A stretch of 63,995 bases of DNA, filler included, from Jimgerdemannia flammicorona (lineage: Eukaryota): the NCBI GenBank assembly GCA_003990765.1. It is 3 parts of 3 records of this genome, joined end to end, with 100 filler letters (N's around TTAATTAATTAA, not from the genome) between each part and the next. Parts side by side here need not be neighbours in the genome. Positions count along the whole stretch, not along the records: positions 1 to 21,435 come from RBNJ01001454.1; positions 21,536 to 42,964 come from RBNJ01001455.1; positions 43,065 to 63,995 come from RBNJ01001564.1. One strand, written 5' to 3'. This document shows positions 14,329-63,995 of this stretch, piece by piece. Below the pieces are notes generated by a model. That model ran no database searches. It was not told the DNA's origin and saw only the letters and a list, made by a program, of their open reading frames with translations. Numbering within the stretch: the stretch's first letter is position 1; every line of letters starts with the position of its first letter. A program made the position numbers and the translations under genes.

Positions 14329-14375
<47 letters not shown>

Positions 14376-15338: not shown

Positions 15339-15978
15339 GTGGAGGTGAGAGCAAACAACTGGGGTTCGGGACGCGTTATTTGATCTTGTGGCTTAGCATC
15401 TCCCCAAATCTGATCGGTGGCTTGGCCTCTACTTATAGGGCATTCGCTCGGAAACACAAGTGTCCCAATCGGGATGGAAGTCATGCAGCGAAGCCCAAGT
15501 TGACTTACTTGTGTTGATAAGATTAGAATCTTCAGATTCCTTCACATATATAATTGATAACATCTTATTTTCTCCTTTTTAACTCAATTTTCTCTATTAA
15601 ATCTACTTCAGATCTTGAAATATTTATATAAATAATCTTTAAGCTTTTATGTTTAAATTATAATAAAAATTAAATAATAGAATAGATATATTTATAAAGA
15701 AAATACTAAAATTAAAAATTATAAAAGATATAAGAGAATTATTAACCTAGTTATTCTTTAAGCTTTATATTTATTTTTATATTTTTACTAGTTTAATATA
15801 TTATTAAAGTTTTATACTTAATTTTATAAAATTAAAATTTAAATATATTAGTAATATTTATATTTATATAATATTTATTTTATATAATTTTTTCTATATT
15901 ATTATATAAATAATATAAAGGTAATTTTATTTATATATATTTTATTTATTTATTTATTTAAATTATTGATATATATAT

Positions 15979-17750
15979 TATAATATATTAGCTCAATAGA
16001 GATAAATTATATGCTTAAAGCTACTATATAGTTTAACTTAAGCCCCCAGTTATTTTATCAAAAGTAATAAAATATTTAATAGTTTTTGGTACAAATTTGC
16101 ATAATGTGAGTAATTTAGATAATTTTCTTAAGATAGATTCTTATAATATAGATAATTTTTTATAAAAAGATAGTAGAAATATCTATATAGTATAAGTAAT
16201 TTTCTTCTTAAATAATTTTTACATTATACATATGATAATTTTTTTATAATATATATGAGTAGTTTTCTTATATATAATTTCTGTATAACAATCTGATATT
16301 ATATAAGTAATTTGATAGACTTTCTTATTAGATAGTAAGTTAATAATTTAGCAGATAATATAGATTCTTTCTAAATCAGTAAACTTCTTAAAAATAACTC
16401 AGATAATATATATGAATTCTTTCTGAATTGGCAGACTACTTGAAAATAATTTAGATAGTATAAATTTTTCCTAAATTAACAGACTACTTAAAAATAACTC
16501 AGATAATATAAATTTTTTCTAAATTAGTAGACTTTTGACTTTATCTGACAAGTATATCAAAATATAATAGATTTTTTCTTTAGGCTTAATCTGGTAAGTA
16601 AATTAAAAATATAATAAATAAATAAAGTTATATTAAAGACTAAGATACATCTTATATATACTAGACTAACTTTATATAGATAGACTTTTTTTATATATTA
16701 GAAAGTAGACTAAAGTAGAAAATAGCTCACAATATCTTGACAGTAGCTAATTAGTAGGTTTCTTCTTCTAAATATATTAGACAATTGGCTTTTACTTTAA
16801 TTTTCAAACTGAGATTTATTTACTCTTATCTCTAAGATATTTTATATAGTTATGGTTACTATTTATATAGTTATTATATAGCTAACTATAAAATATACAG
16901 TAATACTATTTAGAGAAGAAAGTAACTAGGTGTATTTATATATCTGATAAGCACAGGTATATCTAATAAGTATAGATATATTAGATAGACATAGGTATAT
17001 CTTTAAAATACAGATTAATAAATCTGATCTGATATCTTTGACTAATTATATAAGTAATAGTATATATGACTAACTAGGTATAGATAACTATACTATATTA
17101 AATATTTATAATATCTGACTATACTCTGTTATTTGCTTATTATATATATTAGTCTCTACTAAAGAGTAGTTTGTTCTTAAACTATTCTTTAATCATTATT
17201 ATAATATCTATAAATATCTTTTATATCTATACTTATACTATTATTTTCTTTAGTATTTGAATCACTCTATTCTAGAACTCTTTTTCTTCTTATTAATAAT
17301 ACTCAGATAGATAGATATAGTTATTTTCTAAAAGTTATTTAGAGAGAACTAACTCTAGATCAGAGCTATAATATTTTATTTATAAATAGTATAGAGTCTG
17401 TCTACAGTAATAGTATTCCTTTAAAAGAGGTTAGTAGAGATATAAGTCTGTTTAGAGATTGAGAGATTTTATAATAGTTAGTTAATTATATAGTAGATCT
17501 GTAGTTGATAGACCTATAGTAGATATTCTATTAAGATGAGTTTCTTTAATATATTTAGATCTGTTAAAGACAAGTTCTATTAATTTTTTAGAATAGAAGT
17601 AAGGAGACTGATAGAGCTTAGAAAGAATTAAGAACAAGAGTCTAAAGATACTAGTCAATTTTCTGGATTATTGTATAGATAGTAGATATATCTTGAGACA
17701 GTTGATATAGGCTGAGATCTTCAGGATATATTAGTGCTCTGATTGAGTTA
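15979..17750 (-). mobile_element. Extremely decayed 3' fragment of gypsy family A (3' internal region, PPT and 3' LTR about 15979-17148)
   Basis: The reverse complement aligns to 32700-34463, e.g. 'ctttagtagagactaa' vs PPT 'ctttagtaggggctga', and 'attgagctaatatattata' vs LTR end 'attgagccaggcacattata'. Confidence 0.8.
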
Positions 17751-20560
17751 GGGAAATTTGAACCTAATTTGAATTTGCCAACCACATGTCTGATTTGAGT
17801 TAGTTTGAATTTATCATATAATGAATTCAAACTAATCTGAATTTATTATATGATGAATTTGAATCAGTTTGAATTCATTATATGATAAATTAAGATCAGT
17901 TCAAATTCATCATATATATAATAAATTCAAACCAGTTCAAATTCAAATTTATTATATAACAAGTTTAGATTGATTTAAACTCAAATTGAACCAGCTCAAA
18001 TTCACTTCAGAAGCTAGAATCCTGACAAATTCTTCCAATGATAAACCAAATTAAATTAGGAGTCAACTAGTACAAATTAAAGGCCTACCAAAAAGGACAA
18101 TTTTTTAGTAGAAAAAAAAAACCAAAAAAGAATACTATATTTGTCAAACTTCTACTAAATATTCAAAAACTATGACATAATATAAAATATCTACAGATAT
18201 TTTTACTTCTCTAAGTTTCCAAAAAATTTATTATAGCAGTATATAGCTTTTAAGATTCTGTAATAGATACTCAGAGATAAACTGTTTAAAACTTCCTTAT
18301 CTTTAATAACTATTGAACTATGTGGTTAATTTGAGTGAAATACCATCATTATATTAGACTCCAGCAGAACTCTAATATTATAAGCCAAATTATAGAACAA
18401 GCTCTCAGATTTTGAGATATACTGTTCTTTATATTTGATGATATAGAGTAAAACAGATGTCATATCTTGATCAGTATAAGTAGGAGAGCTTACACATTAG
18501 CTAAAAAATATATTACTGACTTTTGCTATATTTTGCTTAAACTGAAATCCTCCAAGTCTAAAATATATTCTAGATTGACTTAGATTTATCAGATCTCTAT
18601 CTATTTCAGGTAATTTCAAAGCTGATGAAGATGCTGATACTAAAGTTAGTAATACTAGAGATACTGGAGATATTGGAAATACTGAGAATACTGAGAATAC
18701 TAGGAATGCTAGGAATACCAAGGATGCTGGGGATGTTGAGAATGCTAAGGACACTGAGGATATTAGAATACTCTCTGAAATTTCCTCAGGAGATAAATAA
18801 TAGAGAGTATCGAACTGGTCAAAAATTGGATAAAGTAGGGGAATTTGTTACTACATCTGGTAAGAAGTATTGAAAAGAAGTAAAGCTATCTCCATAATAG
18901 CTATTTTATATTCCTTCTATTTATTTTATCTAATTTTTAGTTTAAAATTATTAAGAGGTATAATATAGCAATATATCTCTTTAGCATAAGTTAAAGTATA
19001 GCCAACTGATATATAAGATCTAGTTCCAGCTTAAGCTTTGCTATACAATCTAGCTTTCTGAACTTTGAATGCCTTCTCACAAATATTTATCAAAATCTGA
19101 CTTACTTGATCTCTCAATATCTCTCTCAAAATAATAAGAACAACTTCCTCCATATCAGCATCTAAGAGAATATAATTATGATATGAATTTAGAATATCAG
19201 CTGGCAAAGTAGAGGACTCCAAAAATGTTATAGTTCAAAAATAATTTTGGCACCCTTTTTCTGAAGACCTGACAGAATATTACCATTCTACTTCTTCTAA
19301 ATTTTACATATAAAGTGTTATTGTCTAGCCTTCTGAAAGATTAAGTCTTGAAATTCTCAGTATTTCAAAATTCTGCAGACTTGAAATATGGAACTGAGTC
19401 TAGATAAATTTGGTCTTAAGATTTTGCTGATCTACTCAGTATTGTCATTATTGATCCAAAAAATCTGCCAACTGTGCTTTATGTCAATCCTTCTTTACTT
19501 TCTAAAATTAAAATAAAAAGCAAAATAATCTTATAAATAATCTAGGTTAGATGGATATACCCCTATACCCCTCTTCTTAAAAAAAACCCCCCTCTGGAAA
19601 CTTACTTGAATAGTAAGAAGATACTGAAAAATTCAATCATATATTTTCTGACCCATCAGAGGAGGGCTCTCAGGAAAATGAAAATATCATAGCTTGGATA
19701 ATCTCTCATAGTAGGAGCTTTTAAATATCTTCTGAAGTATATCAATTCCTCACCCCATATCAATTACCAAAGCTAGCAAGCTCAAAACTTTTCCAAAATA
19801 TCACATTCTGGGGGTTTTCCAAAATCTAACTCAGGATCAACTCTATCAGATGGAAGGGTTGAGAGAATTGCCAAAGTAGTCTCCAACTCCTATCTTAAGA
19901 TAGTTAGTAATTTACTTGGGTTGAAATCAGTAGAAATAAAATCAGCATCTATTTTATAATAATATACTGAAAGAACCTAACAGTGGTGGAGAGATTGTCA
20001 AAATAGAAAAAAAAACATGGCTGACAAGGGATGCTGGGGGATACAGGAGGATACTGAAGATTAGTCATGAGAGATACTTCTCTAAAGAGAGAGGACATCA
20101 TCAGTGCAGATCAGGAGTCATCCTTCCAACTAATCTCTGGTCATCCTTGCAACATTCTCACTATGGCAAGATAGGTGAGCCCAGCTGCCAGAAGTCCTCT
20201 TCTCAAGAGTGAATATCAGAAGCTGGCTAGAAGAGGTCCTCTTCTAAAGCAAGAGTATATAGCCAGTACAAATCAAAGGACACTCCCCTGATTGGCCTCC
20301 TCAGGATGCTAAAGATCAGTCACAAGAGGTCCTCCTCTGGAGAGAGAGTACATCATCAGCACAAATTAAGGAATACCCCCCCAAATAGTCTTTCAGATAA
20401 AATATTGAAGACAGGCTATAAGAGGTCCTCCTCAGAAATGAGAGAGTATATTTTTGGCATAGATCAGAGGACACTCTCCCAACTAGTCTTCATATTGTCA
20501 GTACATCATTATAGCAAACATTGGCTTAGCAAACATCATCATAGAAAATAAATATAACAT
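17750..20560. mobile_element. Decayed DNA-transposon-like region with a TAGGG start and TTCAAA/TTTGAA subterminal repeats
   Basis: 'tagggaaatttgaacc' followed by a dense array of ttcaaa/tttgaa (decayed TTCGAA). Disrupted coding remnants on the minus strand. Family not identifiable. Confidence 0.35.
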
Positions 20561-20739
20561 ATCAAAAGCAGTAAGACAAGGTAAAGCAAGGCAAGGCAGA
20601 GTAAGGTGGGTCTGAGAACATACTATGAAACACCTTAGACAGAGAGTATAGATGATCTTTTCAAGTAGCAAGATGTGTCAGAGTGGTCAGAATAGAGTAT
20701 AGATGACTTTTTCAAGTGGTGAGATATGTGGAAGATGAG

Positions 20740-21140
20740 CTATAAGAAATGGAAAGTGAGAGAAGTGAAGTGGAGTGAGTGAGAGAAGTGAAGTAAAGTG
20801 AGTGAGAGAAGCAAAGCAAAGTGAGTGAGGAAAATAAAGTAAAGTGAGTAAGGGAAATAAAGTAGAGTGAGTGAGAGAAATAAAGTAGAGCAAGTGAGGG
20901 AAATAAAGTAGAGTAAGTAAGAGAAATGAAGCAGAGTAAGTGAGGGGAATGAAGTAGAGCAAGTGAGGAAAATGAAGCAGAGTGAGTGAGAGAAATGAAG
21001 CAGAGTGAGTGAGGGGAATGAAGCAGAGAGAGTGAGGAAAATAAAGTAGAGCAAGTGAGGAGAATGAAGTAGAGTAAGTGAGGAGAATGAAGCAGAGCAA
21101 GTGAGGGAAATAAAGCAAAGTGAGTGAGAGAAATTAAGTA
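20740..21140. repeat. Purine-rich minisatellite, unit about 24 bp
   Basis: Repeated 'gagtgagtgag(a/g)gaaatgaagca'-like units. Confidence 0.9.
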
Positions 21141-21149
21141 CAAGCATCT

Positions 21150-21435
21150 TTCTCCAGTAATATTCAGGTTACACAACTCTTTGGCAACACTTTCGACACA
21201 GTTTCTGGAGAAAAGCTACTAGTATCATGGCAACTAACGAGCATCCGGAGGTGCGTACTGGGCAGGGTGGCCCTGGAGCATTTGAATGGCAGCAAGTGGG
21301 GAGAGGCCCTGGCTTGGGGGGAAGTATGAGGGGCCTGCTGGCGGGGGGCCATAGTGGAAGAGGGAGCAGAGCTGGAGGTCAAGGGTCTGGCAGGGTGAGC
21401 TTTGCGGAGAAGGTGAAGGGGGGTCGGCAGGGAGC
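21150..21435 (+). mobile_element. 5' end (UTR and start of ORF1) of an L1/Tx1-like LINE, cut by an assembly gap
   Basis: UTR 'attcaggttacacaa..caacactttcgacac' and ORF MATNEHPE..GAFEWQQVGRG..SFAEKVKG match the 5' end of the LINE at 25443-25605. Confidence 0.85.
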
Positions 21436-21535
21436 NNNNNNNNNNNNNNNNNNNNNNNNNNNNNNNNNNNNNNNNNNNNTTAATTAATTAANNNNNNNNN
21501 NNNNNNNNNNNNNNNNNNNNNNNNNNNNNNNNNNN
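21436..21535. other. Assembly gap with artificial six-frame stop linker
   Basis: N-run containing TTAATTAATTAA; the same structure occurs at 42965-43063. Confidence 0.97.
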
Positions 21536-24500
21536 GTCATAGGCCTTCTCCTGGTCCAAAAAGACCAACCTTCCATCCAGACCACAAGCCCGGGCCCCTT
21601 CAATGACACCATGCACCCATGCAGTCCCATCTCTTATAAGCCTGCCTCCAACAAAGCCTCGCTGCTCCTCCCCCAGCACCTGTTGGGCAACTTTCTGCAG
21701 TCTTGCGATGATCACCTTAGTCACCATCTTCCTGTCCATATCCAGCAGCATGATTGGTCTTCAATTCTTCCAATCTTCCCTCCTCCCCTTGTCTTTGTAC
21801 AATAGGGCCACCAGTCCGAGGTCCTGCTCTTCAACCCACTCACCACTCTGAAGGACATGGTCACAGAGAGCAGCCATCTCACCCAAAACACCCGGGACCT
21901 TCACCATCTTCTTCCAGAAGTCCCATGGCAACCCATCCTCCCCTGGCGCCATTCCAAGCTTAGTGGCCACAAGGACACTCTGGATCTCCTCTCCTTGCAC
22001 CAGTAAGATCAAGTCACCCAGTCCATCTACTTGCGGCAGTCCCCACTCTCCTAGTGTATCCGCTATCGCCTCCCCATCAGCACCCCCTTCTCTCTCGCTC
22101 CACAAACCCTGCCATCTCTCCTTCAATACCCCTAAGATTTGTTGTGTGCCATGCACCATGTCACCCTCAGCATCTAGGATCCCCTCCCACCTATGTCACA
22201 CCCTCCTAGTCTGAAGGAGTCTTGATAAGTACCTAGTAGGCCTCTCACCCTCCTCAAGCCCCTGCCACCATAGCCTAGTAGCCATACCATGCATATGAGT
22301 CTCCTCCTCATCTCTCATTACCTGCTTCAGCTCCAATATCTCCAACTTAACCTGCTCTATCCTCCAATTCTCCACCCCATCAGAAGCAAGTAAACCTGCC
22401 CAATCTATTTGTAGTCTTCTCAGCCTGCTAGAAGCACACCTCGTGCGCTCCTTCCTCCGCCTCCCAGCGTCCTTACCAGCTCCTCCCCAATAGACCCTCG
22501 CCGCCTCTTTCAGTCTTATCCAACGGATACCCACCGACAAACCCTCATGCCTCCAATTAAGAACCTTTGCCTGAACATCCTCCACCCATGAGTCCTACAA
22601 CCCCTTCTCAGCCAGCAGGGAGGAGTTAAGGCACCAATGTCTGGGTCCATCTCCACTCCCCCCAAACTGCCCCTGCCCCAACAGTCCCCAGTGATCAGAC
22701 CATGGGCACCACTCCACCCCCAGCGCCTTCCAAACATCCAGACCCCAACACTCAGCTGTCAGAATCCAGTCAATCCTCGTACCTAAGCCATTCACCCAAT
22801 GTGTGTAGACCCTGGAGTCACCCCACCTAGATCTGCCCATATCCCCTAGGGAACTCAACTTCTCCACCTCCTCTCATGCATCCAGACCCCCACTTCTCCC
22901 CCCTGCACTCCTCCCTTCATCAGTTCTGTCTAGACGCTGATCCCAAACCATGTTAAAGTCCCCACCAAGAACATCAACCCCTACCTCCAACAGAATACCC
23001 TCCTCCAGTAGTTCCTCAATCCACACAATCCTCTCTCCCCTCACCGCAGGGCAGTAGCAAGAGCCAACCCTCACCAGCTCCCACCCCGGCTGCCGCCAAT
23101 CACCCCCAACCAAACGATCACCCCAGTTCTTGATTCCCTCCAAGTCTCCTCTACCCTTCCTCACCAGAATCGCCACTTTTCCAAACCAAGCAGTAGCCCC
23201 TCCCCATTCTCTAGTCCACTCCACACAATCACCCTCATCCTCACACTGAACATCCTATAGTAAAAAGAGATCAGCCTCCAATCCCTTGAGCTAAGTAAAA
23301 ATGCTTTTATGCCTCCCAGATCCCCACAACCCATTCACATTCAATGAGAAAATGTTAGTTGTACTGTTCATAAGGAATAATGTTGAAAGAGCAATCCCAT
23401 CATCTACAAGTCCACATTCTGCTCCTCCTGCGCCAAGTCTGAGTCATGCTCAGCAGCCAGTTCCCTTTCCCCAGCATCCTGCACCTCCAGCCCTTTCAGA
23501 AGTTCTACCATTGCCCCATCTTCTTTCTCCTCAAAGTCCTCACGATACTCCATGCAAGCCTCCCGCCAGAACTGCAGACCATGATGCTCAGCCCAACAGT
23601 AGGCTGCCCACTCACCTGCAACCACTACCAGCTCAGCCTTCCTCACCTCATCAACCTCATATCCCTCCTCCTCCAAGAGGATTGCCAGAATCTCCACCCC
23701 CAGCGCCTCCATTACCCCATCGCCACGCAGAATACTCACCCAGTGTTCCTCAGGCATTACCTGCAGGTCCACATCCCCCAATGCCTCAGCCATGAGGTTA
23801 TCCATCACCTTGCTCATCCACAGCAAGTTCCCCACCTCCTTCCCTCCCGGAGTTCCTGGCTGCCCTGCATCCAACATTGTGGTGTCAGCACCTACACTGG
23901 CAGTCTCATCCCATGCCTCCTCAGGGACATCCACCAGCTCATCCTCTCCAACCACTACCACCTGGCCCCCTTTCACCACATCTGGGACCCCAAAGGTAAC
24001 ATGCTGGGCCCCCTGCATCTGTACATCTTCCGCAACCACTCTCCGCCCCACCGGGCCCCTCCTGACTAGAGGGGGGGGAGTGCTATCAGACTCCTCCTCC
24101 CAAACTTCGTAAGTACCATCGGCATAGGGATCCCTGCCCAGCACCTTCGCAGCCCATTCCTCTGTCACCACTGCCTCCTTCCCTCCTTCGCTAGCCCATA
24201 CACTAGCTTTGATGCCTCCAGACTCCTCAATCCCATCCACCTTCCTCTTCTCCCCTCCTGTTATACTTGCCAAGAGCTCCCTCTGCCTCTTGCGGCCCTG
24301 GGCCCTCTCCCACTGCTTCCTATCAGTGCGCACATGCTTCCCATTCACAATCTCCAGATGCGTCAACTCCTCAAATAGCTTCCAGGCTTTCGTCCTCCTC
24401 TCCACAGCCCCACCCAACTCCTCCAGCGCCTCCAACAAGTCCCCCTCCTCTTCTTCACTCCCCTTTACCCTCGACACCTTACAGACGAATGCCCCCCACA

Positions 24501-25605
24501 TCAGCACCGAGGGCCAGTCACTCATCTTCCCCATGGCCTCCTTCCCTGCCAGCCGGATCCTGACATCGACATCACCCATCCTGAACATAGTCCCCTCCCA
24601 CACCTGAAATCCAACATCCACCACATCACCATACTCCACCATCACCTCCTCCACCCTCTTCCTAGTCTCCTCCTTAGACACTGTGGGCACCCCCCTCACC
24701 AGAAGCTGCACCACCCTGGGGTCCCACCTCAAGCACTGCACCATGGGTACCACCATCTCTCCAACTATAACTCCAGTCTTCAGAGCCTCATCCAGTGGGC
24801 CCGCTTCCTCAAAACCCACCTCAACCCCCTCCAAGCCCTTCAAGAACTTCACCAAGGCAGCCCCTGCCACTTGCTTTGAAATCAGCCCCAGAACCATCCT
24901 TGCCGTCACCACCAAGCCCCGGAAGCACAATGTGACTGCGAACTCCGAAATCGACTTCTTGAGCAACGGGGCCACCGCCAGCCCCGTTACACCATCTGCC
25001 AGGTCCCCCTCCCGCATCAGGAACCCCTGATCCCCCTGGCCATCAGCCGTCACATCTCTTTTTTTCTCCCGATTCGCCGTCACACCCCCATCAGCAGTCC
25101 CACCCCCAGCCACAGCTCCTCCAGACCCTACACTCATACCTCCAACCTGAGGACCACCCCCCCTCCCAAGGCTCACCTTGCCCTTCTCCACAGCAGCACC
25201 AGCCCTGTCTCCAGCCCTGTCTCCAACTGGCCATCCACTTCCCTTCACCTTATCAGCAAAGCTGGAGGGGCCAGCCCTTCCCCTGTTACCACCCAACACC
25301 AGTCCTCCTCCAGAGCCCTCTGCACCTTTCGACCCTCCAAAGGCCCCCATCCCCAGGCCAAAACCCCTCCCCACCTCCTGCCAGCTGAAAGCCCCAGCTC
25401 CCCCCAACCCAGTATGCCCATCGGAACTCTTGCTTGAAGACATGTTGATAGTACCTTCTCTCCTAGTAGTGTCGAAAACTGTTGCTTGAAGTCTTGTGTA
25501 ACGTGAATTGTACCAAAGAAAGGTGGTCTATGTTGATAGTTGTCTGTCATCAAAAATGTTGAAAAAAGTGTTGTCTGAGTCTTGTGTCACCTGAATGGTA
25601 CTAGT
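21536..25605 (-). mobile_element. L1/Tx1-clade non-LTR retrotransposon (5' UTR, intact ORF1, APE-RT ORF2 with stops; 3' part lost in the gap)
   Basis: ORF2 from about 23371: FSLNVNGL, GGDFN, TRIDWI, SDH (APE); APGEDGLP, KNWRPI, QRGFV.GR.I.D, FLDQEKAYD (RT). Confidence 0.92.
23404..25443 (-). CDS. LINE ORF1 protein (679 aa), RRM-like core
   Basis: Uninterrupted ORF directly upstream of APE-RT. LLVRGVP...YGDVVDV...GDVDVRI is typical of L1/Tx1 ORF1 RRM regions. Confidence 0.8.
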   Translation of the reverse strand: MSSSKSSDGHTGLGGAGAFSWQEVGRGFGLGMGAFGGSKGAEGSGGGLVLGGNRGRAGPSSFADKVKGSGWPVGDRAGDRAGAAVEKGKVSLGRGGGPQVGGMSVGSGGAVAGGGTADGGVTANREKKRDVTADGQGDQGFLMREGDLADGVTGLAVAPLLKKSISEFAVTLCFRGLVVTARMVLGLISKQVAGAALVKFLKGLEGVEVGFEEAGPLDEALKTGVIVGEMVVPMVQCLRWDPRVVQLLVRGVPTVSKEETRKRVEEVMVEYGDVVDVGFQVWEGTMFRMGDVDVRIRLAGKEAMGKMSDWPSVLMWGAFVCKVSRVKGSEEEEGDLLEALEELGGAVERRTKAWKLFEELTHLEIVNGKHVRTDRKQWERAQGRKRQRELLASITGGEKRKVDGIEESGGIKASVWASEGGKEAVVTEEWAAKVLGRDPYADGTYEVWEEESDSTPPPLVRRGPVGRRVVAEDVQMQGAQHVTFGVPDVVKGGQVVVVGEDELVDVPEEAWDETASVGADTTMLDAGQPGTPGGKEVGNLLWMSKVMDNLMAEALGDVDLQVMPEEHWVSILRGDGVMEALGVEILAILLEEEGYEVDEVRKAELVVVAGEWAAYCWAEHHGLQFWREACMEYREDFEEKEDGAMVELLKGLEVQDAGERELAAEHDSDLAQEEQNVDL

Positions 25606-29469: not shown

Positions 29470-29830
29470 TAAACCAAAGCTCACCAGGAAGATGTAGGGT
29501 ATGATCTCTACAGTCTGGAGGATGAATATATCAAGCCTGGAAGAATATTGGTATTCAGAACTGGACTAGCCATGCAGCGATCCAAAGAAACTTACATCCA
29601 ACTGACCTTAAGGTCTGGACTTGCCAGACAAGGAGTAACTGTAGAAGGAGAAATCATAGATCCAGGATATATAGGCGAAATCAAGATCATCCTGCATAAC
29701 AGTCATATAGAATGGCACTGAATTCTTAAAGGACAGAAGATTACTCAAGCAGTCTTCATGAAAGTCAAGACTCTCCAATTACAAGAAGTCTCCAAACTGA
29801 CCAAAGAAATAAGTCAAGCTGAAGAATTTG
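29470..29830 (+). pseudogene. dUTPase domain within the gypsy A polyprotein
   Basis: VGYDLYS, RTGLAM, RSGLA, GEIIDPGYIGEIKIILHN and KGQKITQ correspond to trimeric dUTPase motifs I-IV. One in-frame TGA. Confidence 0.9.
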
Positions 29831-42960: not shown

Positions 42961-42964
42961 ATCT

Positions 42965-43572: not shown

Positions 43573-43639
43573 CTAGTATTAGTGCTCTGCAAACCTGACC
43601 CAATTAACCTGAAACCTGACCTGTAAAACAGCCAACCTG

Positions 43640-51800: not shown

Positions 51801-52358
51801 AAGTGAGGGATTCATCTTGAATCACTAGTCAATAGGCACCAAGTTGTCATGTAGTGGTTGCTGAGTCCTTCAAATATACCAGATTCTCTTCAAGGTGTAT
51901 CTCTTAGACTAACTCAAGTTTGTTATAAGCAAGTTCTTATTGGAGTGCCTTCTCAAGGTCTTATAGTCCTCAAACTTCTTATCTTTAAACTGTCTTGTTA
52001 TCTCTTAGATTGCTTACAAGGAAGTGTATATATTGCACTGAGAAGACTGACTTTATTTCAGAGGAAATAAGAGGGGTATTTATACAAAATATAATTCAAT
52101 AGTTGCTAAGATATAAAGCTAAATATAAATTCCAATAACTAAAACTACTAAGTTTCAGAGTCAGCACTAATAGTTGTACAGGTTCAGAATGCTGTTATAA
52201 TTTAGTGTCACATCAGAATACCAGTGCTAGAATAATTTTGCATCACCTCAGAATGCCAATGCTGGCATTATCCTGTATTACATCAAAATACTAGTACTGG
52301 CATTATCCAGTATTATATCAAAATACCGGTGCTGGCATTATTCAGTGTAACAAGGAAC

Positions 52359-53156
52359 TTAGAGCAAAATGTTCAGGATCATGGGGGCTTCATCATCATC
52401 ATCATCATCACTGAAGGAGATGAGATCCATGAATTCATCGTTTTCATGTACTTCGATGTCATGCAGGATGACATCATTGCTAATGATGTCATCACATTTG
52501 GCAGTGGGGAAATCAGGGGCTCTCCAATCTATGAGGTTCTCTTCCACAAAATAAGGAACAAATGTGGGGTCTTGGAGAGATCTAACCTGGATGCTTAGAC
52601 CTTGGAATACTGAGATCAATCCTTGCAGGAATTGGTCTGGGTTGTCCTGAAGGATGGGGTGCCAGAAGTCTTCTACTTCTTCACTATTGAGGGTGATAGT
52701 GGACTGGGCTTCTGTAGCTACCCTGGCTTCTAGTACATTGATGCGGTGGGATGACAGGTCTCTGAAATCTGAGACTCTAACATACTCCAAGTTGGGAATT
52801 GACCATGGTACATGTCTGAAGATCTGATGGATTTTCTTAGCTGTCCTTGTTTCATGTATATCCATGAGAGTGGTATCTTGTAGCTCTTGAGTACTGGTCT
52901 GTGGGAACTCCCGGCAGAGGAGGTTTCCTATTTCGTACTTCTGCTACATTTGGAGGCATTCAGTAGCAATGGTGATCCTTGTTTCCATTTCACAGTAGTA
53001 GAGGATAAAGTGATAAGGATCTGTGGTACCCAAGTTGACACTAGGAGTTCTTCTTGAGTAGGTCCTCATGGCTCTTCTGATGTCTTGGAACATCCTTTTC
53101 TCAACTGAGATGCCTTGGTAGTTCCTTGATCTTGAGGTTTGGTGGGCAGCAGGCAT
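52359..53156 (-). pseudogene. LTR-encoded accessory ORF3 of family C (5' LTR copy, single TGG>TAG stop)
   Basis: The ORF-track pieces 52944-53156 and 52359-52865 are one frame. The TAG at 52944 is TGG in the other LTR. Confidence 0.82.
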
Positions 53157-55484
53157 TTCATTTGTGGTAAGTCTTTGAGCTATTTTGGGATTAGTGGTTC
53201 TTATTGATTACTGCTACTGCAGTTCCTTGATCCTTCTTTTATATTCTTCAGAATGCTTATACTGTGGTCACAATGACTCACAGTTGGTCATCATTGCTCA
53301 TCTTGTATGCTGTATGATCTTCTTGTGCTCTGATCTGGTGGCTTGCAAGAAAAGGCTGTCTCCTGTACTGATGTCATCATTCTGGAGTCACCATTATAAT
53401 ACATTCTCAGTAGCAGTAAGCATTATCTATAAAAAATAAAAATATATACATATTACTTCCCAATTACTTACTAAATTAGTTCCTAAATTCACAAATAAAA
53501 TTACTTTCAAAATCATATATATACCTGATTAAAATATTCACCAGTTTGATATATATTGATGATATCTTTGAGGTGATCACATAACCGATTAAATAGTGAG
53601 ATAACAGCTGCTATTGTAAGATACTTCGAAGTTGACATCACAGTTGTCACTTTGGTAAAAGGCTCAAGAAATTGGCAAATCAATTCAAATTGTTGTTATG
53701 CATCTTCAGATATATTACTCATTTGCTTATCTATGATACACAATATATCCAAACCCTATTTAGATGTAATATCAATTTATTTAGTACCAAAATACTTCTG
53801 AATCATATTCCAAAATCTATACAAATAGATTTAAAATCTTATCTTATGAATCTCTAGAGTATATGCTAACATTTCATATATAGAACTCCATCTCATCATA
53901 ATATCTAAGAGAGGCTTCAAAATAGGAATTCTGGAGGATTCACAGACCTTTGCTAGTTGTACTTATCATTGTGCTAAATTTTTGATCTTCTTTATTAACT
54001 CCTATAGCTTTTCAATGGGCTCGCTAAGAGAACCAAGAGCATTATAAACAACGAGATTCAATATATACCTGAAACAGCATACATGAGCAAGTGGATGATG
54101 GAGATTCTCAAACAGAGTATTATTGTTACTAATATTATTATACACAATAGCAATGATTTAATTATCACTAGGTAATAAATCATCTATTACCAGCTTCAGA
54201 CTTTTTGCAAAATTGGCACCCATGTGTGTTATTTTGCTAATATTCACAAAGTCTAAGATAATGTTATATATCTTCCAATCACTGTCAATCTAATGAGCTG
54301 TTATTCCAAGGAAGGCCTTGATGTTAACATCCAATGTCCACTAATCAAGTATAAGTGACACCTTCAACTTGAGCCCTGTTAGCCTTGCTTTTACTTGAGT
54401 CTGCAATAGTTTGAATTCCTTTTGAATAACTCATGAAATTATATCAGCTGATAGAAGGGCCAGATTAGGGCATAATATGTGAAGAAGATACTTGAAGCCA
54501 GTGTTTTTGATAGTGGAGAATAGCTGATATCCAGTGATAATAAAGTTGGTAATTAACCAATAGAAATTTTCATCACTTAAAGTCTTGCTAGTGTGTTCTT
54601 ATTTATAATCTAATAACCTCCTAAGTACTTCCTGAATTCCATTCTATCCATACTCACAATATCATCTTTCTTAGACCAGTGAGGATTCTCAGCATACTGA
54701 AGAGGTAAGAGCATGGCATTGTGATGCTTTCAGAGATGTTGTTTAAGATTGTTGATATTGCCATCCTTCAATATATAGCTCTAAGTTATGCAATAGTTAC
54801 AACTGATGAGCTTACTTTGTAAATTCTATTTGAATAGAGAGATATGAGACTATATTAGAACCTCAACCACTTACAACTGACCACCCACCCTTACAACTGA
54901 TGAGACCAATTATCCCTGTAAATGCAACTATTAGTACAATATATAAAACTACCTTTGTGATATGATTCCACACTCAGCTATTACCAGGTTTTGTTTTTAT
55001 TTTTTTCTTGTACTTATTGATGATAACAAACTAGTGGAGACATCTGATATATCCTTCAATATATCCTCTGATATATCATCCGATGGTTATGAGATTTCTC
55101 CTAAATACACTTCTTGATCTTTAGACATTTCAAATATTTAATGATAGTGGGGACTAGGAGCTTGAGTGGGAGGCCAAGAGCTGGAAAGTAGCTAGGAAGT
55201 GGTGAGCTAGAGAGTGGTGAACTGGGAAACAAGCTGGGGGGGCAGTGAACTAGAGGGCAGGGAGTTGAGAGGAGGTGGTGAGCAGCAGGAAAAGCCAGGA
55301 ACTGTGGGGCCTGAAACAGGAGTCAGCAAGCTGGGGGGCAGCAAGAGAGAGAGCAGTAAGGTGGTGTGCAATAGCCAATAATTGATTGTGGACAGAGGAT
55401 GGATGAATAAATATGCATGGGTGGTGAACTGGTACCCATCATGCAACTGCAAACAGCAAACATACTTTGGATATTCAGCATATT

Positions 55485-55782
55485 CTGTGTAAGCCCCGAT
55501 TGAGCAAGGTTTGCAATAATATTTAAGCGAGATTTGTAGTGTGTTTGAGTGAGATTTGCAGTGAGGTTCAAGTAAGATTTGCAAGCAAGATTAAAGCAAG
55601 ATTTGCAAGTAAGATTTGCATGTAAGATTAAAGTGAGATTTGCATAAACCAGGCTTTGCAAATCTTGCTTGCAAATCTCGCTTGAACCTCACTATAAATC
55701 TCACTGCAAATCTCACTCAAACACACCACAAACCTCACTCAAACATCATTGCAAACCTCACTCAATTGGGGCTTATACAGAA
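55485..55782. mobile_element. Foldback/MITE-like palindrome 1
   Basis: tctgtgtaagccccgattgag ... ctcaattggggcttatacaga, with long inverted arms built from gatttgca units. Confidence 0.8.
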
Positions 55783-55797
55783 CCCACTGAATCACAG

Positions 55798-56000
55798 AGA
55801 GGAGTAGAACGTAGTGAGGGAAGCTCCAGATTGCAAGCATAAGTGTAAGCACAAGCTTTGCTCCACTCAGTCTGACAAGCTGATAATAAGCTAATATCAT
55901 GTAATATCAGCTATCAGCTGAGTGGAACAAAGCTTGTGCTTGTACTTACACTTATGCTTATGCTTACAATCTGGAGCTTTCCTCACTATATTCCACTCCT
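55798..56000. mobile_element. Foldback/MITE-like palindrome 2
   Basis: gaggagtagaacgtagtgagggaagctccagattg ... caatctggagctttcctcactatattccactcctc inverted arms. Confidence 0.8.
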
Positions 56001-56739
56001 CTTACATTCCACTCCTCTTGCATTCTACTTCTCTTATATTCCACTCCTCTTGTACAACCCTCACATATTCCTCCATCTCTCTCACCCTCATTCCTCAGAT
56101 TGCAAATAATATGTAATTTAGAAATGAGTTTCAAAAGAGATTTTGAAGAGATTCTGAAAGAGATTTTGGAGAGATTCCAAAAGAGCTTCTGAAAGATATT
56201 ATAGCTTTTGAACATTTAAGATATCAAAAGCTTACTTTCACCTCTTGTTCTTTTCGCTCCATCCTTCACTTCATCTTGTCCTTTGCTTCACCTTACTTAA
56301 TTCACTGCTATGTTGAGAAAATGTGGATATAACTGCCTGGCCAATAAGTATTTACTTGGCCCCCCCCAAGCTTGATGCACTTCAGCTCACTATCTCAAAG
56401 TTCAGTGCCCTAAAGATGCCCAGCTTGCTGACACCCAGTCTACTGAGCTTGCTGGCATCCAGCCTGTCGAGCTTGCTGACACCCAGCTTGCTGAGCTTGC
56501 CAACACTCAGCCTGCTGAGCTTGCTGACACTCAGGTTGCCAAGCTCACCAACTCCCAGCTCACTGACTCTCAGCTCTCTGATCTCCAGCTTGACCACCAG
56601 CTCGCCACTAGTCTGTAAGCACAAGGTCCCCCATCAGATCCCAATAATATAGCTTAAAAAAGTTAGTTTTTTTTTTTTTTCTTTTTAAATCAATGTCTGA
56701 TTTTTTTTCCTAATAACATTTAAAATATACATATCCTCC

Positions 56740-57628: not shown

Positions 57629-57899
57629 GATCTATTCACACCAGTAAGTTCTTTATTTTTCTGATTTACTTCCTATTTATTTCTGATTTCATTTTCATTT
57701 CTGATTCCTAATTATATTTCTGTTTATTTATTCTAAATATATATCTTAGATGTGCAATATTTTTTTTTTAGTGTCTTGTAGCTTAAAGGCAGATTAAAGA
57801 TGGGTCTGTGTCAGATTAAATATAGGTCAGGGTTGAGTCATATATATTTCTCAGGTCAGGTCATGTATATTTCTCAGGTTGGGTTACATATATTTCTTG

Positions 57900-58145
57900 G
57901 GTTGGGTTAAAGATGGGTTATGTATAATTCTGGGTCAGATTAAAGATAGGTGATATATATTTCCAGGTTGGGTTAAAGATGAGTGATATATAATTTTGGG
58001 TTAGGTTAAAGATAGGTGACATATTATTCTGAGTTGGATTAAAGATAGGTGACATATAATTCTGGGTCAGGTTAAAGATAGGTGATATATAATTCCAGGT
58101 CAGGTTAAAGATAGGTGATATATAATTCTGGGTCAGGTTAAATAT
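57900..58145 (-). repeat. 33-bp tandem array (right subterminal repeats of the hAT element)
   Basis: Unit about ggtcaggttaaagataggtgatatataattctg. Confidence 0.88.
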
Positions 58146-59764
58146 GTACATGGGTTGGCTCAGGTTACAATATACTAGCCATTTATTATCAGTCTATTAA
58201 TAAGTTTACAGTATTACCTCCCACTACCCAATCTCTATAGGAGAGCCTCTCTCCACATTATTATGAATAAAGACCACACTACTCCAACTCTCCTCCCACT
58301 CTGCTTACAGATTTTCTCCACCAAGCAATACCTTCAACTATCCTACAACCCCCAACCAAGCCACCAGTTTGTCAAGATGTCTTCCATAAGACTATACCAA
58401 TGCAACAGTCTGTCCCTCAAGCCCAGTCTCCTTCCATCCTCAAAAACAAATAATCAGTAACTGGCCAACTCCACCCAAATCACCAAAACTCAGTCTAAGA
58501 TAAGCCACTCCTTCCCCACCCCCCCCACCAGTCTATCCCTCAAATCCTCCCACCAACTCTGTACACCATCTCCCCTACACACTACCCCTGAATGATCCCC
58601 AACAGTCTACCAAAAGTCACTAAGTACCTTATACTCTCCTAGCCAATGTTCAGACATCTGCACATATCTCCCTTCCTGCCCTACATTATGGCACTCCTCA
58701 CAGGAAGTAACCTCCCTCGATAAGATGACCTAAGTAGAAGTTGAGCATTATATTTCTCCTCATCAGACCACCTAATATTTTGGTAGTATCTATCTCCTCA
58801 CCTCAGCACTCCAGGTCCAAATACTATGCCAGTTCCACTCCTCTAATACTCACTCCCTGCCATCTGTTAGGCTACAGATCCTGGCCTGATCCCCTTTGGC
58901 ATTCTATCCTATCACTAATGTCAAACTCAATTAAGGGAATGCCTCTCAGTAATACTCAGTTCCATCTTCACATTACTGAGTCTCAAGCTACCTCTCCTTT
59001 ATTTCTCTGCCAAAAAATTACAATATAGTGTACCTCCTCTGCTACCCTACACCAGAAGTCTTTGAATTACAATTTTTCAGTATTCTGAAGTCCAACCAAT
59101 GACAGGAGATCTCCTGTCATGCCTCTTGGTGAGGATCTCATCTCTCAGACCTTCTGTAATAGGGGGACCTAACTGCCCCCTCTCAACTCCACTGCTCTCT
59201 TTAACCACCATGCTCTCAAGCAGTATAGCCTCTTTGGAAAGTCAACCAGCCTAAGTCCTCCTCTTGCCACTGGTAAGGATAAGACCTCCCAACTGATCTA
59301 ACTCCTTCTTCTAGCCCAGATCCACTCCTTGGCCAGCTTTATCAATCTCTTCACTACCCAGGCTGGGAAGTCCAGATGATAAGCCAGATACTACAACTTC
59401 AGCAGCCAATAGACATTCAAAATTGAGACATGCTCTGCTAGAGATAAGTGGCAACCCCCCCAACTCTGCAGGGCCTTTGTAAGAGGGTTGCTTTTTAAGA
59501 GTAACCATTATGTAGTTCTGGAAGGATTTTCTGGAAGTTCTGGATGTTCTGGAAGACTGTTTTCTTATGGTCAAGATCAATTTAATATGGAGTATATCCT
59601 CTATGCTTATTGATTTCAAGATCAGGTTGACATCTCAACCAAAGTTCTTTTTTTGAACTAGTTCTAGATGTTCAGGATTTTCAGTATTTTAGGAAGTTCA
59701 AGAGACTAAGACCAGCTTAGTTGAATTGGTATATTGCTGTAGACAATACCCAATTAGAAAATTT

Positions 59765-61544
59765 TGTGATGTGGTTAGGAGTGGGATCTAATAGAGAGCG
59801 GATTTACTTAAGAGTGGTTTGTGGGTTATTTGAATAGGTTTATTTGCTATTTCATGATATTGCTATACTAGGAGTAGTTGTGTGAAGGGATATTATAGGG
59901 AAGTATTCAGGAATGTTCTTGTGTATTTGAGTCTGAGATTCTGAGGTCTAGGGGAGGGGGTATTTATACTAGTGAGGGGCTATCTAGACTATGCTGAATA
60001 TGGATGTAGCACTAAGTACCTTGCTGAGTCAGAATGCAGTCACATAGTACAAGTGTGATCTGACATGTCAAGAGATCATCTGACTGCTGAGTCAGTTCAC
60101 AGTCACATCGTACAAGGCTAATCTAACTATACTATGACTGCTTAGGCTATTTATAGGTTTAGGCACTGTCTGGGTAGTCCTCGATGACATCACCATCAAT
60201 TGTATCATCTCTGATGAAGTAGTCATCTAGAAAGAGTGGTTCACAGATTACTTCTCCTTGTTTGCTGAGGTAATAATACATTGGAACTTCGTCTCTATCC
60301 TACAAGATGGCATCATCAGTCTCATATGCTGGATAAGGTGTTGGTGGACAAAAGAGGGGTGCATCATCTTCACTTTTGTCAAATTCGCTGTCTGCATATC
60401 TTCTGTAGGTTACAGCACTATGAGTCATGGGGTTGTAGTAAGCTGGTGGCTGTAGTTCATGTTGCTCATACTCAGGTGGTGGAGTGGTTGGTTCAATCTC
60501 GAGGGTTGTCTGGAGGTACAGGTTGTGTTCTCTGGTCTCTTCATTGTAGTTGAAGTAATCAGGGGTAAATGCGGGTTAGTATTCATACCAGTGGTTATTG
60601 TCCCAATAAGTCTCATAGGCTGTTATGAATTGTTGTAAGTTCATCGGCAAGGTTGGCAGTGTGATCAGGGTTGACAGAGATCCTTGGCTAGAGGTCATGT
60701 TGGCATTAGAGAGATCATTGTCTTCTGCTTTATCTTCATCGAAGTAGATTATATCATAGATGTCCTTCATGGCATATCCAACTTGGGGTATTTGCAGGAT
60801 ATGATCATTGGGGTGTGGGAAGGTTCTGTCTGTAGTTTCGATGTACTTGAGGTACTTGTAGTTGAGTTCTTGTATCATGTCATTAATTTAGCCATAGGAC
60901 AGGGTAGCAACCATTTTGGCTGTAGTAACTCGAAGGTGGGAAATAATGGTGCTATACTCGTAGAAGAGTTCTTGATGTTTGCAGGCAATGAGCTTCTGGT
61001 GTTGAGACATCTGGGTAATGTCTGTATCGTGGTGATGTTCGATCATGTCTTTCAGGAGGTGGCCAATCTGGTAGTAGCTTGAGATTTGTCTGATTCAGTG
61101 GGCCTTACTAAGCATGTTCAGAGCATTTCATTGGGCTTCCACAAAGTAGAGGGGTGCTAGGCTATGGATATTCATGAGGGGTAGAGGGGGTGTGGCTCAG
61201 TTGACAATGGTATTCCAAATGTCAGCACAGATACAGGTATAGATCTCAGTGGTCATGTTTGTGTGTTTGGAAGTTGTGGTTATTGTTTGTTTTGGTTCTC
61301 TGATTCGACGCATCTCAGTGCTCGGTATATATATATTTGATCCTGATTGGTAAGATTCTATTTGTGTAAATCTTGTGTTCTGTGACTTCATATTGACTCA
61401 GCTTTGTATGCTGTAACTTCAGTTTGACTCAGCTTCATAATCAAGCAGGTGATTTCCAGATATGTTCAGAGGTCGCATGTGATTTCAGTGGCTTGTTCAG
61501 AGGGTGATGTGTAATTTCGGTGGCTTGGAGGTTGTGCACTTACA
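59765..61544 (-). mobile_element. 1.78-kb LTR of family D containing ORF3, followed by about 300 bp of presumed internal sequence (59470-59764)
   Basis: Termini TGTAAGTG...CACATCACA; GTATAAATACCCCTC TATA (same as family C LTR) followed by AATAAA; inserted in LINE ORF2; no TSD. Confidence 0.75.
60159..61256 (-). pseudogene. LTR-encoded accessory ORF3 of family D (365 codons with in-frame stops)
   Basis: Single frame MTTEIY...SSYYQIGHLLK...IACKHQELF...LSYG*INDM...PPPEY..PPAY..acidic tail. Stops are TGA/TAA/TAG compatible with CGA/CAA/CAG. Confidence 0.75.
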
Positions 61545-63970
61545 GCCTTCCCCCAGATTCCAACCCTCTGCTCCCACCAAAGTCTGAGTAGGACTGACCC
61601 ATATATTATAAATAAATATCCAAGTACTGCACTATCTCACCAGTAGGGATGATTGTTCTAATAATATCCCCACCCACCAGACTATTGCCTAATACCATTG
61701 TTTCACACTTGTACCAATTGAGTTTAGCCCCAGAGTTTTCCTCATACTACTTCACTATCTCCTTGAGCTCCTCAATATCAGCAATTGATCTCAGACCAAT
61801 CACTATATCATCTGCAAAGGCTCTAACTTTCCACCCAATTCCAAAAATGGAGAGCTCCACTATCTTCTGCCTAATTCTGTCCATTAGGGGTTCTAGAGAA
61901 AGAGTATATAGAATGGGGGATAGTAGGTCCCCCTGGGGCATACTGATACCCAGGGGAAATGATATCCCTCTATATCTATTACATATGAGTGCAGTCCTAT
62001 TCCCTTCCAGTAGGCTAATCATTACTGACCAGAACTAGTACAGTATCCCAGTTCTATCTAAGACTTTCACCAGTCAAACTCACTACACCTAGTCATAAGC
62101 CTTCTCCTGGTCTAAGAAGACCAGTCACCCATCCAGTCTACAAGCTTGTACTCCTTCAATAACTCCATATACCCAGGCTGTATCATCCCTAATGAGTTGG
62201 CCTCCTACAAAGCCCCTCTGCTCAATACCCAAGACTTGCTGGGCCACCTTCTGTAGCCTCACAACTACTACCTTAGTCACTGACTTTCTATCCATGTCTA
62301 GAGCATAATCAGCCTCCAGTTCTTCCAGTTCTCTCACCTTCCTTTGTTCTTATAAAGCAATGTCACCAGCCCCAGATCCTGCTCCCCCACCCATTTCCCT
62401 GTCTGTAGTATAAAATCACACAATATCATCATCTCATTCAGTACTCCTGAGACTCCCACTATCTTCTTCTAGAAGTCCCAGGGCAGATCATCCTCCCCAG
62501 GTGCTGTACCTGGTGTCATCATGGCAAGAATCTAGAGGATCTCTTCCTCTTGTACTGACAATATCAAGTTACCCAGCCCATCCACTTGTGGAGGGTGCCA
62601 ATCCTCCAATGCCCAGTCAATAGCAGTAGTATCAGCCCCACCCTCCTTCTCACTCCATAATCCACTCTATTGCTTCTTTAATAATTCAAGAATGTCTTGT
62701 ATACTATGCACTAGTATACTATCAGAGTCAAGTATCTCCTCCCATCTTTGCTATATCCTTCTCACCTGAAGGACCCTTGTAAGATACTTTGAGGGCCTCT
62801 CTCCTTCCTCCAAACCCTGCCAATGAAGCCATACTACCAAGCTCTGCACCCTTATCTCTTCCTCTTCCCATAATACCTGTTTTAATTCTCCAATCTCTAT
62901 TTTTGCTCTCATTAATCTCCAATCCTCTCTCTTCTCTAATATCACTAGCCCTGTCTAATCTTCCAAGAGTCTAGCCAGTCTAACAGAAGCCCATCTCACT
63001 TGTCACCTCCTCTGCTTCTCAGTCTCCTTGTCAGCCTCACTCCAGTAGACCCTGGCCATCTCTTTCATTCTCATCTACCAAACACCAACTGGGGTACCTT
63101 TTTGTCTCTAGCTCTCTACCCTCAGTTGAATGTCTTCAGCCCACTCATTCCACCAGATCCTATCATCTCATAAAGAGAAATTGAGGCACTAATGTCCAGG
63201 CCTATACCCACTCCCTCCAAAGTGCCCCTGTCCTAACAGCCCTTAATGATCTGACTATAGACACCATTTTACCTCCAGCAACTTCCAAACATCCAAGCCC
63301 CAGAAGCTAGCCATCAAAATCCAGTCAATCCTCATCTCCAGGCCCCCTGCCCAATGTATATATACTCTCTTATCTCCCTAATACTCCCTACCAGTATCTA
63401 TCGGAGCACTTAGTCTTTCTACTACCTCTCACACCACCAGCCCTCCACTCCTACTCTCAGCTCCCTGTCCTCTATCTGTTCTATCCATCAGTACATTCTG
63501 GACCATATTAATGTCTCCACCAAGCATATATACCCCAGCCTCTATAAGAACCCCACTCTCCTGGAGACTCTTCACTTAATCCACATACTCACTCTATACA
63601 GCAGAGTAGTAACAGAAGTCCACTGTGACTGACTTCCAACCTGTATGTATCTACTCTCCCCAGACCAATCTATCCCTCCAGCTCCTCATATCCCATATCT
63701 CCCCTCTGCCTTTCCAGACCAGAATCCCAATCTTGCTCTTCCAAACTATCTCATCTCCTCATTCTTTCATCCATTCCAGCCTATCTAAATCATTCTCACA
63801 CCTGATATCCTGCAAGAGGAAGATATTTGCCTCCAATCTCTTCAGCTAAATAAAAATGTTCCTACATCAAGAAGTACCCCATAACCTATTCACATTTAAA
63901 GAAAAAATGTTAGTTATATTATTCATAATGAAATATAGTGTGTTATCAAGTCTATCTCTACTGTTTCATA

Positions 63971-63995
63971 TTTTTTTTTTTTTTTTATAGTCCCA
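63971..63995 (-). mobile_element. Poly(A) 3' tail of the next LINE copy
   Basis: T-run plus 'atagtc', as at 43064-43077. Confidence 0.5.

Follow-up and report, generated by a model that had tools for sequence, protein, structure and literature searches.

Repeat-confined, context-specific C-to-T hypermutation in a root-associated fungus outside Dikarya

Can the repeats of a fungus outside Dikarya be hypermutated from C to T as happens in repeat-induced point mutation (RIP)? The question is raised by a window of 63,995 bases of DNA from Jimgerdemannia flammicorona, the whole stretch analysed here, made up of three contigs (1-21435, 21536-42964 and 43065-63995) with runs of N and linker sequence between them, in which genes give way to decayed transposons, among them a gypsy-type retrotransposon that we call element C. 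RIP and RIP-like defences are currently held to be a Dikarya trait, in practice one of Ascomycota. A sequence-only reading of the window had proposed a RIP-like process restricted to its repeats. The observation behind it is borne out, and more strongly than it had been put. That proposal stands in that the changes are polarised, repeat-confined and context-dependent and the host is non-Dikarya; it fails in that the signature of canonical RIP is absent. Our findings document a repeat-confined, polarised and context-specific C>T hypermutation in a root-associated non-Dikarya fungus, with a spectrum that fits DIM-2-type methylation best. The hypermutation is RIP-like in outcome, yet it is not canonical RID-dependent, CpA-directed RIP.

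Spectrum and direction of the changes

The C-to-T changes are confined to repeats, with the genes alongside spared. In 1-15500 we observed 1039 CpGs against 970 expected (observed/expected ratio, O/E, 1.07), whereas 15501-63995 holds 153 against 1740 (O/E 0.088), just as CpG had been described as abundant in the genes and nearly absent in the repeats. The switch takes place within about 250 bp: G+C content (GC) is 0.55 in the 250-bp window that ends at 15500 and 0.18 in the one that ends at 15750, with the border some 160 bp upstream of the start of an aminotransferase open reading frame (ORF). The last dense CpGs stand at 15445-15489, and a single one (18811) occurs between 15489 and 21194. 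Low GC alone is insufficient to explain the loss, since the unique genic stretch 10001-12000 retains CpG (O/E 1.14) at a GC of 0.40. Nearly half of the surviving repeat-side CpGs (75 of the 153) are located in a GC-rich relic at 21-26 kb that resembles a long interspersed nuclear element (LINE). TpG and CpA are overrepresented in most repeats (O/E 1.0-1.6), and the oldest relics are down to 22-27% GC, with TpA/ApT of 1.07-1.17. The span 15520-63995 had been treated as one stretch; it crosses two joins and takes in parts of three contigs, and because of the linkers any adjacency inferred across either join is an artefact. The contrast between genes and repeats is valid despite the joins, given that the switch falls within contig 1.

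The spectrum of change is best read from the long terminal repeats (LTRs) of element C. These are about 1.5 kb each, longer than the sequence-only reading had implied, and a target-site duplication of 4 bp (ATGC/ATAC) bounds the element. The pair differs, over 1519 aligned sites, by 123 substitutions, 120 transitions and 3 transversions, and by a single indel, one 35-bp repeat unit. Under a transition to transversion ratio (Ts:Tv) of 2, the probability of at least 120 transitions in 123 is 9e-18; outside CpG, where there are 84 transitions and 3 transversions, the probability is 7e-12 at a ratio of 2:1 and 1e-4 at 5:1. A transition excess of such size excludes drift. Twenty-three ancestral CpGs were inferred in the LTRs: none is retained in both copies, 13 now form reciprocal CA/TG pairs and 10 persist in one copy, the partner reading CA in six and TG in four. 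Reciprocal pairs of this kind had been pointed out beforehand, and the strings then quoted were recovered at 45163 and 52445, in columns 600-623 of the alignment. The changes are split evenly between the two copies (58 vs 62), with per-copy C>T estimates of 0.76 at CG, 0.107 at CA, 0.10 at CC and 0.016 at CT, and about 0.001 transversions per site. The interior of the element is mutated about as heavily as its LTRs and holds many stops; the earlier remark that indels are comparatively few needs the correction that at least one frameshift separates RNase H from integrase. On the LTR termini, for which TGT>TAT and ACA>ATA had been described, the element C LTR begins with TATAA in both copies and ends in ...GACA. 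A primer-binding site (PBS)-like TGGTGCC lies 3 nt inside the element C interior, beside the 5' LTR. The sibling element B, which has its sequence just inside the 5' LTR in common with element C (34658-34680 vs 51820-51844), reads TAGTGCC there (about 34661), a G>A change at TpG; the TGG>TAG change reported for the PBS is therefore real in element B, and element C keeps TGGTGCC.

Copy pairs are uninformative on direction, and the pol relics were therefore anchored to database homologues. Three gypsy pol relics (27.5-33, 35-39.8 and 46-51.8 kb) were aligned by tblastn to 85 homologues, which yielded 409 codon columns with at least 12 homologues aligned and at least 70% residue agreement. One-step changes in these columns were 21 C>T, 38 G>A, 3 T>C, 1 A>G and 28 transversions, some of which may be old family differences and not decay; 25 further columns require several steps and 9 are ambiguous. 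The polarity claimed from the sequence is confirmed: of 305 non-synonymous opportunities for C>T or G>A, 59 had been taken, but of 307 for T>C or A>G only 4 (Fisher p=4e-15). The same holds in pol relic A (19/81 vs 1/105), in element B (27/106 vs 1/96) and in element C (13/118 vs 2/106), and by context the changes amount to 7/9 at CpG, 33/96 at CpA, 16/97 at CpC and 3/103 at CpT. Two other polarisations, both weaker, lean in the same direction. A majority consensus of eight tandem arrays gave C>T 59/471 against T>C 52/802, a weak and biased result left unused for conclusions; the LINE copies, with the GC-rich one taken as less decayed, gave 270 C>T plus G>A against 137 T>C plus A>G, no more than a two-fold asymmetry, from copies that are saturated and with no clear context.

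Stops have accumulated in all three gypsy relics, 48 of them at homologue-aligned codons. The homologue consensus reaches 0.4 or more at 23 of these codons, and as many as 17 of the 23 can be explained as W, R or Q codons altered by nothing but C>T or G>A (W>TAG 8, W>TGA 1, R>TAA 3, R>TGA 2, R>TAG 1 and Q>TAG 2), the other six requiring a transversion or several steps.

Context dependence and likeness to known systems

Which cytosines change depends on the base that follows. Six repeat pairs were compared, the element C LTRs and five older pairs, with C or G taken as ancestral at transition differences. Within the element C LTRs, cytosines were changed in either copy at 36 of 46 CpG, 47 of 244 CpA, 30 of 165 CpC and 7 of 217 CpT sites, and the five older pairs follow the same order (30/34, 65/163, 57/168 and 16/145, respectively). 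Reconstruction bias was avoided by counting only sites with an identical 3' neighbour in both copies; pooled over the six pairs, these gave CG 14/14, CA 112/407, CC 72/236 and CT 23/362 (CA/CC/CT chi-square p=4e-16; p=5e-8 for the element C LTRs alone). Non-CpG changes are, as had been described, frequent, and they carry a strong dinucleotide preference, CpA and CpC over CpT, which disposes of one half of the refutation proposed with the sequence-only reading, a lack of any such preference; the context-resolved spectrum returns the order CG >> CA >= CC >> CT. The effect of the 3' neighbour is marked (p=5e-15) and that of the 5' neighbour weak (p=0.025). No TpCpG preference was found in the element C LTRs, TCG being the lowest (7/13) beside ACG (7/7), GCG (9/10) and CCG (13/16). 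Plant-like CHG methylation was rejected: 22 of 98 CAG sites are changed and 8 of 98 CTG sites, without symmetry. Dipyrimidine damage of the ultraviolet type was rejected too, CpT being mutated least of all contexts.

Canonical RIP takes CpA as its main target and is expected to leave high TpA/ApT, low (CpA+TpG)/(ApC+GpT) and a positive composite index. Across nine segments of the window the composite index ranged from -0.97 to +0.03 and the substrate index from 1.04 to 1.56; the usual RIP thresholds were approached in the oldest relics alone, by 2-kb windows with a GC of 0.22-0.25 (e.g. TpA/ApT 1.17, substrate index 0.78). Since CpG decay continually yields TpG and CpA and so masks CpA loss, index scans would score most of this DNA as not RIPed. 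Clustering of C>T and G>A changes by strand, a check suggested with the sequence-only reading, was absent from the element C LTRs, where a runs test counted 31 runs in one copy and 33 in the other, for expectations of 29.9 and 29.4 (P=0.66 and 0.87, respectively), though many superimposed mutation rounds could mask strand runs. This absence, together with the even split between the copies, fits many independent single-site events. Canonical RIP was rejected on these observations: the preferred target is CpG, CpA and CpC suffer to about the same extent, no composite index rises clearly above zero, and the changes show no strand clustering.

How, then, does the pattern compare with known systems? 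With the RID-dependent, pre-meiotic RIP of Neurospora crassa and other Pezizomycotina it shares repeat-confined C>T and G>A changes, nonsense mutations in transposon genes, AT-rich old copies with sharp gene borders and a great rarity of transversions and indels; Neurospora-type RIP, however, is CpA-dominant and RID-dependent, whereas here the order is CpG >> CpA >= CpC >> CpT, without strand clustering. Among Basidiomycota, CpG hypermutation has reportedly been seen in Rhizoctonia solani AG8, and RIP-like hypermutation in Pucciniomycotina such as Microbotryum falls at TpCpG. The present pattern resembles such CpG-directed hypermutation in the loss of CpG to TpG/CpA in transposons without RID, but it shows no TpCpG preference, and CpA and CpC are strongly hit too. 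Passive deamination of 5-methylcytosine (5mC) in plants and animals similarly leaves CpG depletion and a TpG/CpA excess in repeats, with neighbouring genes unmethylated; it differs from what we see in the Ts:Tv of 40:1 found here and in the strong non-CpG targeting without plant CHG symmetry.

The Dim2 system of Zymoseptoria tritici is likewise transposon-restricted (PMC8016269). With a functional Dim2, its transposons are methylated at 43-61% of CG, 10-22% of CA, 3-8% of CC and less than 0.01% of CT, a ranking of CG > CA > CC >> CT equal to the mutation ranking here, the match being one of mutation in our window with published methylation levels in Z. tritici (PMC8016269). Dim2 there promotes mutation of the methylated repeats, C>T making up more than 95% of the changes, in what has been termed a mitotic version of RIP (PMC8016269), and the literature gives a DIM-2-class enzyme to both hosts. 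The two differ in that mutations in Z. tritici fall at CA and spare CG (PMC8016269), whereas CpG is almost wholly lost here; CpC is also relatively more affected here, and the hosts belong to Mucoromycota and Ascomycota, respectively. Outside Dikarya, RIP-like decay has been suggested for Zoophthora radicans (Entomophthorales), which also has a transposon-inflated genome and paralogues of DNA methyltransferases (DNMTs); that report, unlike ours, relies on CpA-type window RIP indices, which the present signature would mostly fail, and concerns the phylum Zoopagomycota (PMC11105155). RID is reported from Pezizomycotina alone (PMC9963178).

Methylation, mutators and other explanations

In the reading that we favour, cytosine-5 methylation of the kind performed by the DIM-2/DNMT1 superfamily is directed at the repeats and followed by deamination, both confined to repeats; we give this reading a probability of a little under 0.6. 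A DIM-2/DNMT1-type enzyme would methylate repeat cytosines with the preference CpG >> CpA >= CpC >> CpT, and methylated C would turn into T by deamination, spontaneous or enzyme-assisted. Over time nearly all CpG would be lost, many CpA and CpC would become TpA and TpC, and stops would arise in gag-pol. Old copies would end up at 22-27% GC, and the genes, unmethylated at a distance of a few hundred bases, would keep their CpGs; the outcome would be an irreversible mutational inactivation of transposons. The 3'-neighbour rule argues for a DNMT-like specificity, unlike that of APOBEC-type deaminases, whose targets are usually set by the 5' neighbour. In agreement, DIM-2-like genes are reported in Endogonales (PMC9963178), and the rows consulted in its Dataset S1 assign three proteins of the DIM2 class to J. 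flammicorona and both DNMT1 and DIM2 to Endogone sp.

Several points weigh against this methylation-based reading. The non-CpG transition to transversion ratio of 28:1 in the element C LTRs is more extreme than is usual for passive 5mC decay in plants and animals. The mutation spectrum was taken from repeats only, and we infer methylation as the cause, as well as the enzyme responsible, from analogy and a published gene inventory. In that inventory, over the stretch of the DNMT1 block consulted, from the Phascolomyces rows onward, J. flammicorona has no DNMT1-class entry at the place that its order in the DIM2 block predicts, immediately ahead of Endogone (PMC9963178), which leaves a dedicated CpG maintenance enzyme undocumented for this species. 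The Dim2-dependent mutator of Z. tritici hits CA and spares CG (PMC8016269), the context hit hardest here, and CpC, mutated about as often as CpA in our repeat pairs, is methylated clearly less in that fungus. A 2026 review also credits early-diverging fungi with 5mC that is near-undetectable (PMC13297926). Taken together, the extreme transition excess and the erasure of CG, spared in Z. tritici, keep an active mutator in play.

Such a mutator would be a RID-independent, duplication-sensing activity of Endogonales, perhaps sexual or pre-meiotic, that deaminates cytosines enzymatically, maybe by way of a DIM-2-like paralogue, with CpG hit more than CpA and CpA about as much as CpC. It would account for near-exclusive transitions, as in RIP (120:3 overall and 84:3 outside CpG), for per-copy C>T rates of about 0.76 at CpG and about 0.10 at CpA/CpC against about 0.001 transversions per site, and for the AT-rich old relics and the stops of the three gypsy relics. 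Candidates exist in the three DIM2-class paralogues published for J. flammicorona, and enzymes of the DIM-2 family contribute to RIP, or resemble it, in Neurospora and Z. tritici (PMC12543289; PMC8016269). We nevertheless consider it unlikely. Strand clustering is absent and none of nine segments has a composite index clearly above zero; in contrast to Neurospora RIP the preferred target is CpG, and RID is reported from Pezizomycotina alone (PMC9963178). The element C interior is about as mutated as the LTRs, so that linked duplicates carry no excess. Moreover, in the kingdom-wide k-mer screen of Badet and Croll, RIP-like signatures were found in Ascomycota only, scaffolds shorter than 50 kb having been dropped (PMC12543289); the contigs studied here are about 21 kb.

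The polarity and the transition-only spectrum would also follow from a cytosine deaminase other than a DNMT (AID/APOBEC-like or other), or from a heterochromatin defect in U:G/T:G repair, with CpG methylation decay superimposed, and so would a C>T rate at CpT (about 0.016 per copy) well above that of transversions (about 0.001 per site). Yet a deaminase is hard to reconcile with a context set by the 3' neighbour and only weakly by the 5' one, and a general repair defect would not part CpA/CpC from CpT four- to six-fold; explanations of this kind appear improbable. Still less can be said for ordinary CpG-only methylation decay plus neutral drift, with the non-CpG pattern produced by alignment, ancestral reconstruction or transposon composition. 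CpG loss is indeed the largest single effect (36/46), and the TpG/CpA excess of most repeats accords with it; but the 84 non-CpG transitions against 3 transversions depart strongly from either ratio considered above, the contrast of CA/CC with CT persists at sites with unchanged neighbours, and the pattern recurs in the protein-anchored polarisation and in five further repeat pairs, which makes this a very improbable account. Scarcely credible is an origin in foreign DNA or artefact, be it repeat contigs from another organism, damage or assembly errors. The concatenated window, the absence of a host gene from contigs 2 and 3 and a nearest database pol of 45% identity might suggest it; however, J. 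flammicorona genes and DNA of the same CpG-free, AT-rich kind are contiguous in contig 1, which has a repeat in common with contig 2, as contig 2 has with contig 3, and DNA damage would respect neither the gene/repeat boundary nor the 3'-neighbour rule.

We tentatively put forward, at odds well short of even, that Endogonales possess a RID-independent repeat-directed mutator driven by expanded DIM-2-like methyltransferases and acting at CpG, CpA and CpC. If this holds, a defence of the RIP kind would be ancestral to the fungal DIM-2/RID/DNMT1 superfamily or would have evolved independently outside Dikarya, and it would have been missed by index and k-mer surveys because CpG-to-TpG/CpA conversion masks CpA loss and assemblies are too fragmented. 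Standard RIP indices overlook CpG-led variants. In a mycorrhizal lineage of Mucoromycotina, cytosine methylation, possibly with a DNMT-linked mutator, may thus shape genomes, and the lineage offers a natural system for asking whether enzymes of the DIM-2 family have long had a mutator activity. A literature search found no paper tying Jimgerdemannia or Endogonales to RIP-like mutation, the Endogonaceae genome paper being outside its coverage.

Host, layout and other repeats of the window

Protein matches show the host to be J. flammicorona itself or very closely related to it (Endogonales, Mucoromycotina/Mucoromycota) and place it outside Dikarya, as the taxonomic check proposed earlier had called for. 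An ARMT1-like ORF in contig 1 has its best matches in J. flammicorona proteins, followed by Bifiguratus and Endogone, and its exons are 99.5-100% identical to the former, aligned stretches that overrun introns aside. Against a second J. flammicorona protein, P0087, the three exons reach 100%, 100% (up to the intron) and 99.5%. The last exon differs from the proteins of two J. flammicorona isolates by one substitution in 200 residues at the protein level; the isolates are very close in the one gene compared, and their comparison would hence yield little background mutation signal. The other genes recognised by Pfam within 1-15.3 kb of contig 1 are a SMYD-like zf-MYND+SET gene, an NAD epimerase/dehydratase and the aminotransferase, the ARMT1-like gene itself encoding a phosphatase. 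Sampled words of 1-10000 were found at 57% in run X1, at 41% in X2 and at 7-9% in two root metatranscriptomes, which is no evidence of habitat. The genome of J. flammicorona is transposon-rich and about 240 Mb in size (size from PMC7928374).

Contigs 2 and 3 consist of repeats only, and repeat families recur between contigs: 17148-17709 with 32668-33262 (66% similar), 21536-23377 with 62092-63932 (LINE-like copies, 64% identity) and 35790-39767 with 46545-50681. The features are listed in table 1.

Table 1. Features of the 63,995-base window and the evidence for each
Feature	Position	Strand	Evidence or remark
Host gene-rich unique DNA, internal control	1-15500		Pfam matches; CpG undepleted
ARMT1-like gene	3429-4946	+	J. 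flammicorona proteins near-identical
AT-rich repeat relic, contig 1 end	15501-21435		15501-20700: GC 0.27, CpG O/E 0.01, TpA/ApT 1.07
23-bp tandem array, about 17 copies, purine-rich unit	20755-21140		Tandem Repeats Finder; directly before CpGs resume at 21194
Artificial join 1	21436-21535		N44-TTAATTAATTAA-N44
LINE-like retrotransposon relic, least decayed repeat of the window	21536-25600	-	GC 0.55, CpG O/E 0.28; ORF list
Gypsy-type pol relic A	27500-33000	+	tblastn of 85 homologues
Gypsy-type element B	34461-40791	+	LTRs 34461-34657 and 40594-40791; pol relic 35000-39800
AT-rich relic, contig 2 end	40792-42964		40001-42964: GC 0.25, CpG O/E 0.02, composite RIP index +0.03
Artificial join 2	42965-43064		N44-TTAATTAATTAA-N44
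Older repeat, left copy	43091-43859		Direct part 43091-43573 and 33-bp array 43635-43859
3' LTR of gypsy element C	44598-46116	-	LTR pair alignment, target-site duplication
Element C interior: gag, protease, dUTPase, reverse transcriptase (RT), RNase H, integrase	46117-51844	-	Frame translations; Pfam protease, dUTPase, RVT_1, Integrase_H2C2
5' LTR of element C	51845-53398	-	LTR pair alignment
Older repeat, right copy	57875-58651		Inverted 33-bp array 57875-58145 and direct part 58179-58651
Second, more decayed LINE-like copy	60001-63995	-	RVT_1 match 61750-62034; GC 0.43, CpG O/E 0.10

In the better preserved LINE-like relic, ORF2 is broken into pieces of 92-144 aa and cut by the contig edge. 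The relic also has an open frame of 707 codons (23407-25527, minus strand) without a Pfam match. Its coding strand is G-rich and C-poor (GC skew of the plus strand -0.4 to -0.5), and the frame may be preserved merely because a G-rich strand yields few stops.

The five older repeat pairs together differ by 172 transitions and 32 transversions. The LTRs of element B are 87% identical (18 transitions, 7 transversions). The direct parts of the older repeat that brackets element C share 81% identity (78 transitions, 7 transversions), and its 33-bp arrays, mutually inverted, differ by 40 transitions and 5 transversions. Some 5 kb of further repeats, together with element C, separate the two copies, and the left end is cut by the contig start. 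There are also three palindromic, self-inverted repeats of 190-310 bp with an arm identity of 73-78% (55483-55782, 55798-56002 and 17755-17943), the one tested (55483-55782) showing 20 transitions against 5 transversions.

The closest database homologue of the gypsy pol family is 45% identical, and a metagenome scan gave no relative of the 308-aa ORF spanning gag and protease. In element C, protease and RT are separated by a dUTPase domain (48923-49489, minus strand; PF00692, E=1.5e-17), and the element's nearest database homologues, P0001 and P0002 (45% and 39% identity), likewise bear PF00692; a transposon-borne dUTPase is of note, as the repeats of the host genome undergo C>T decay.

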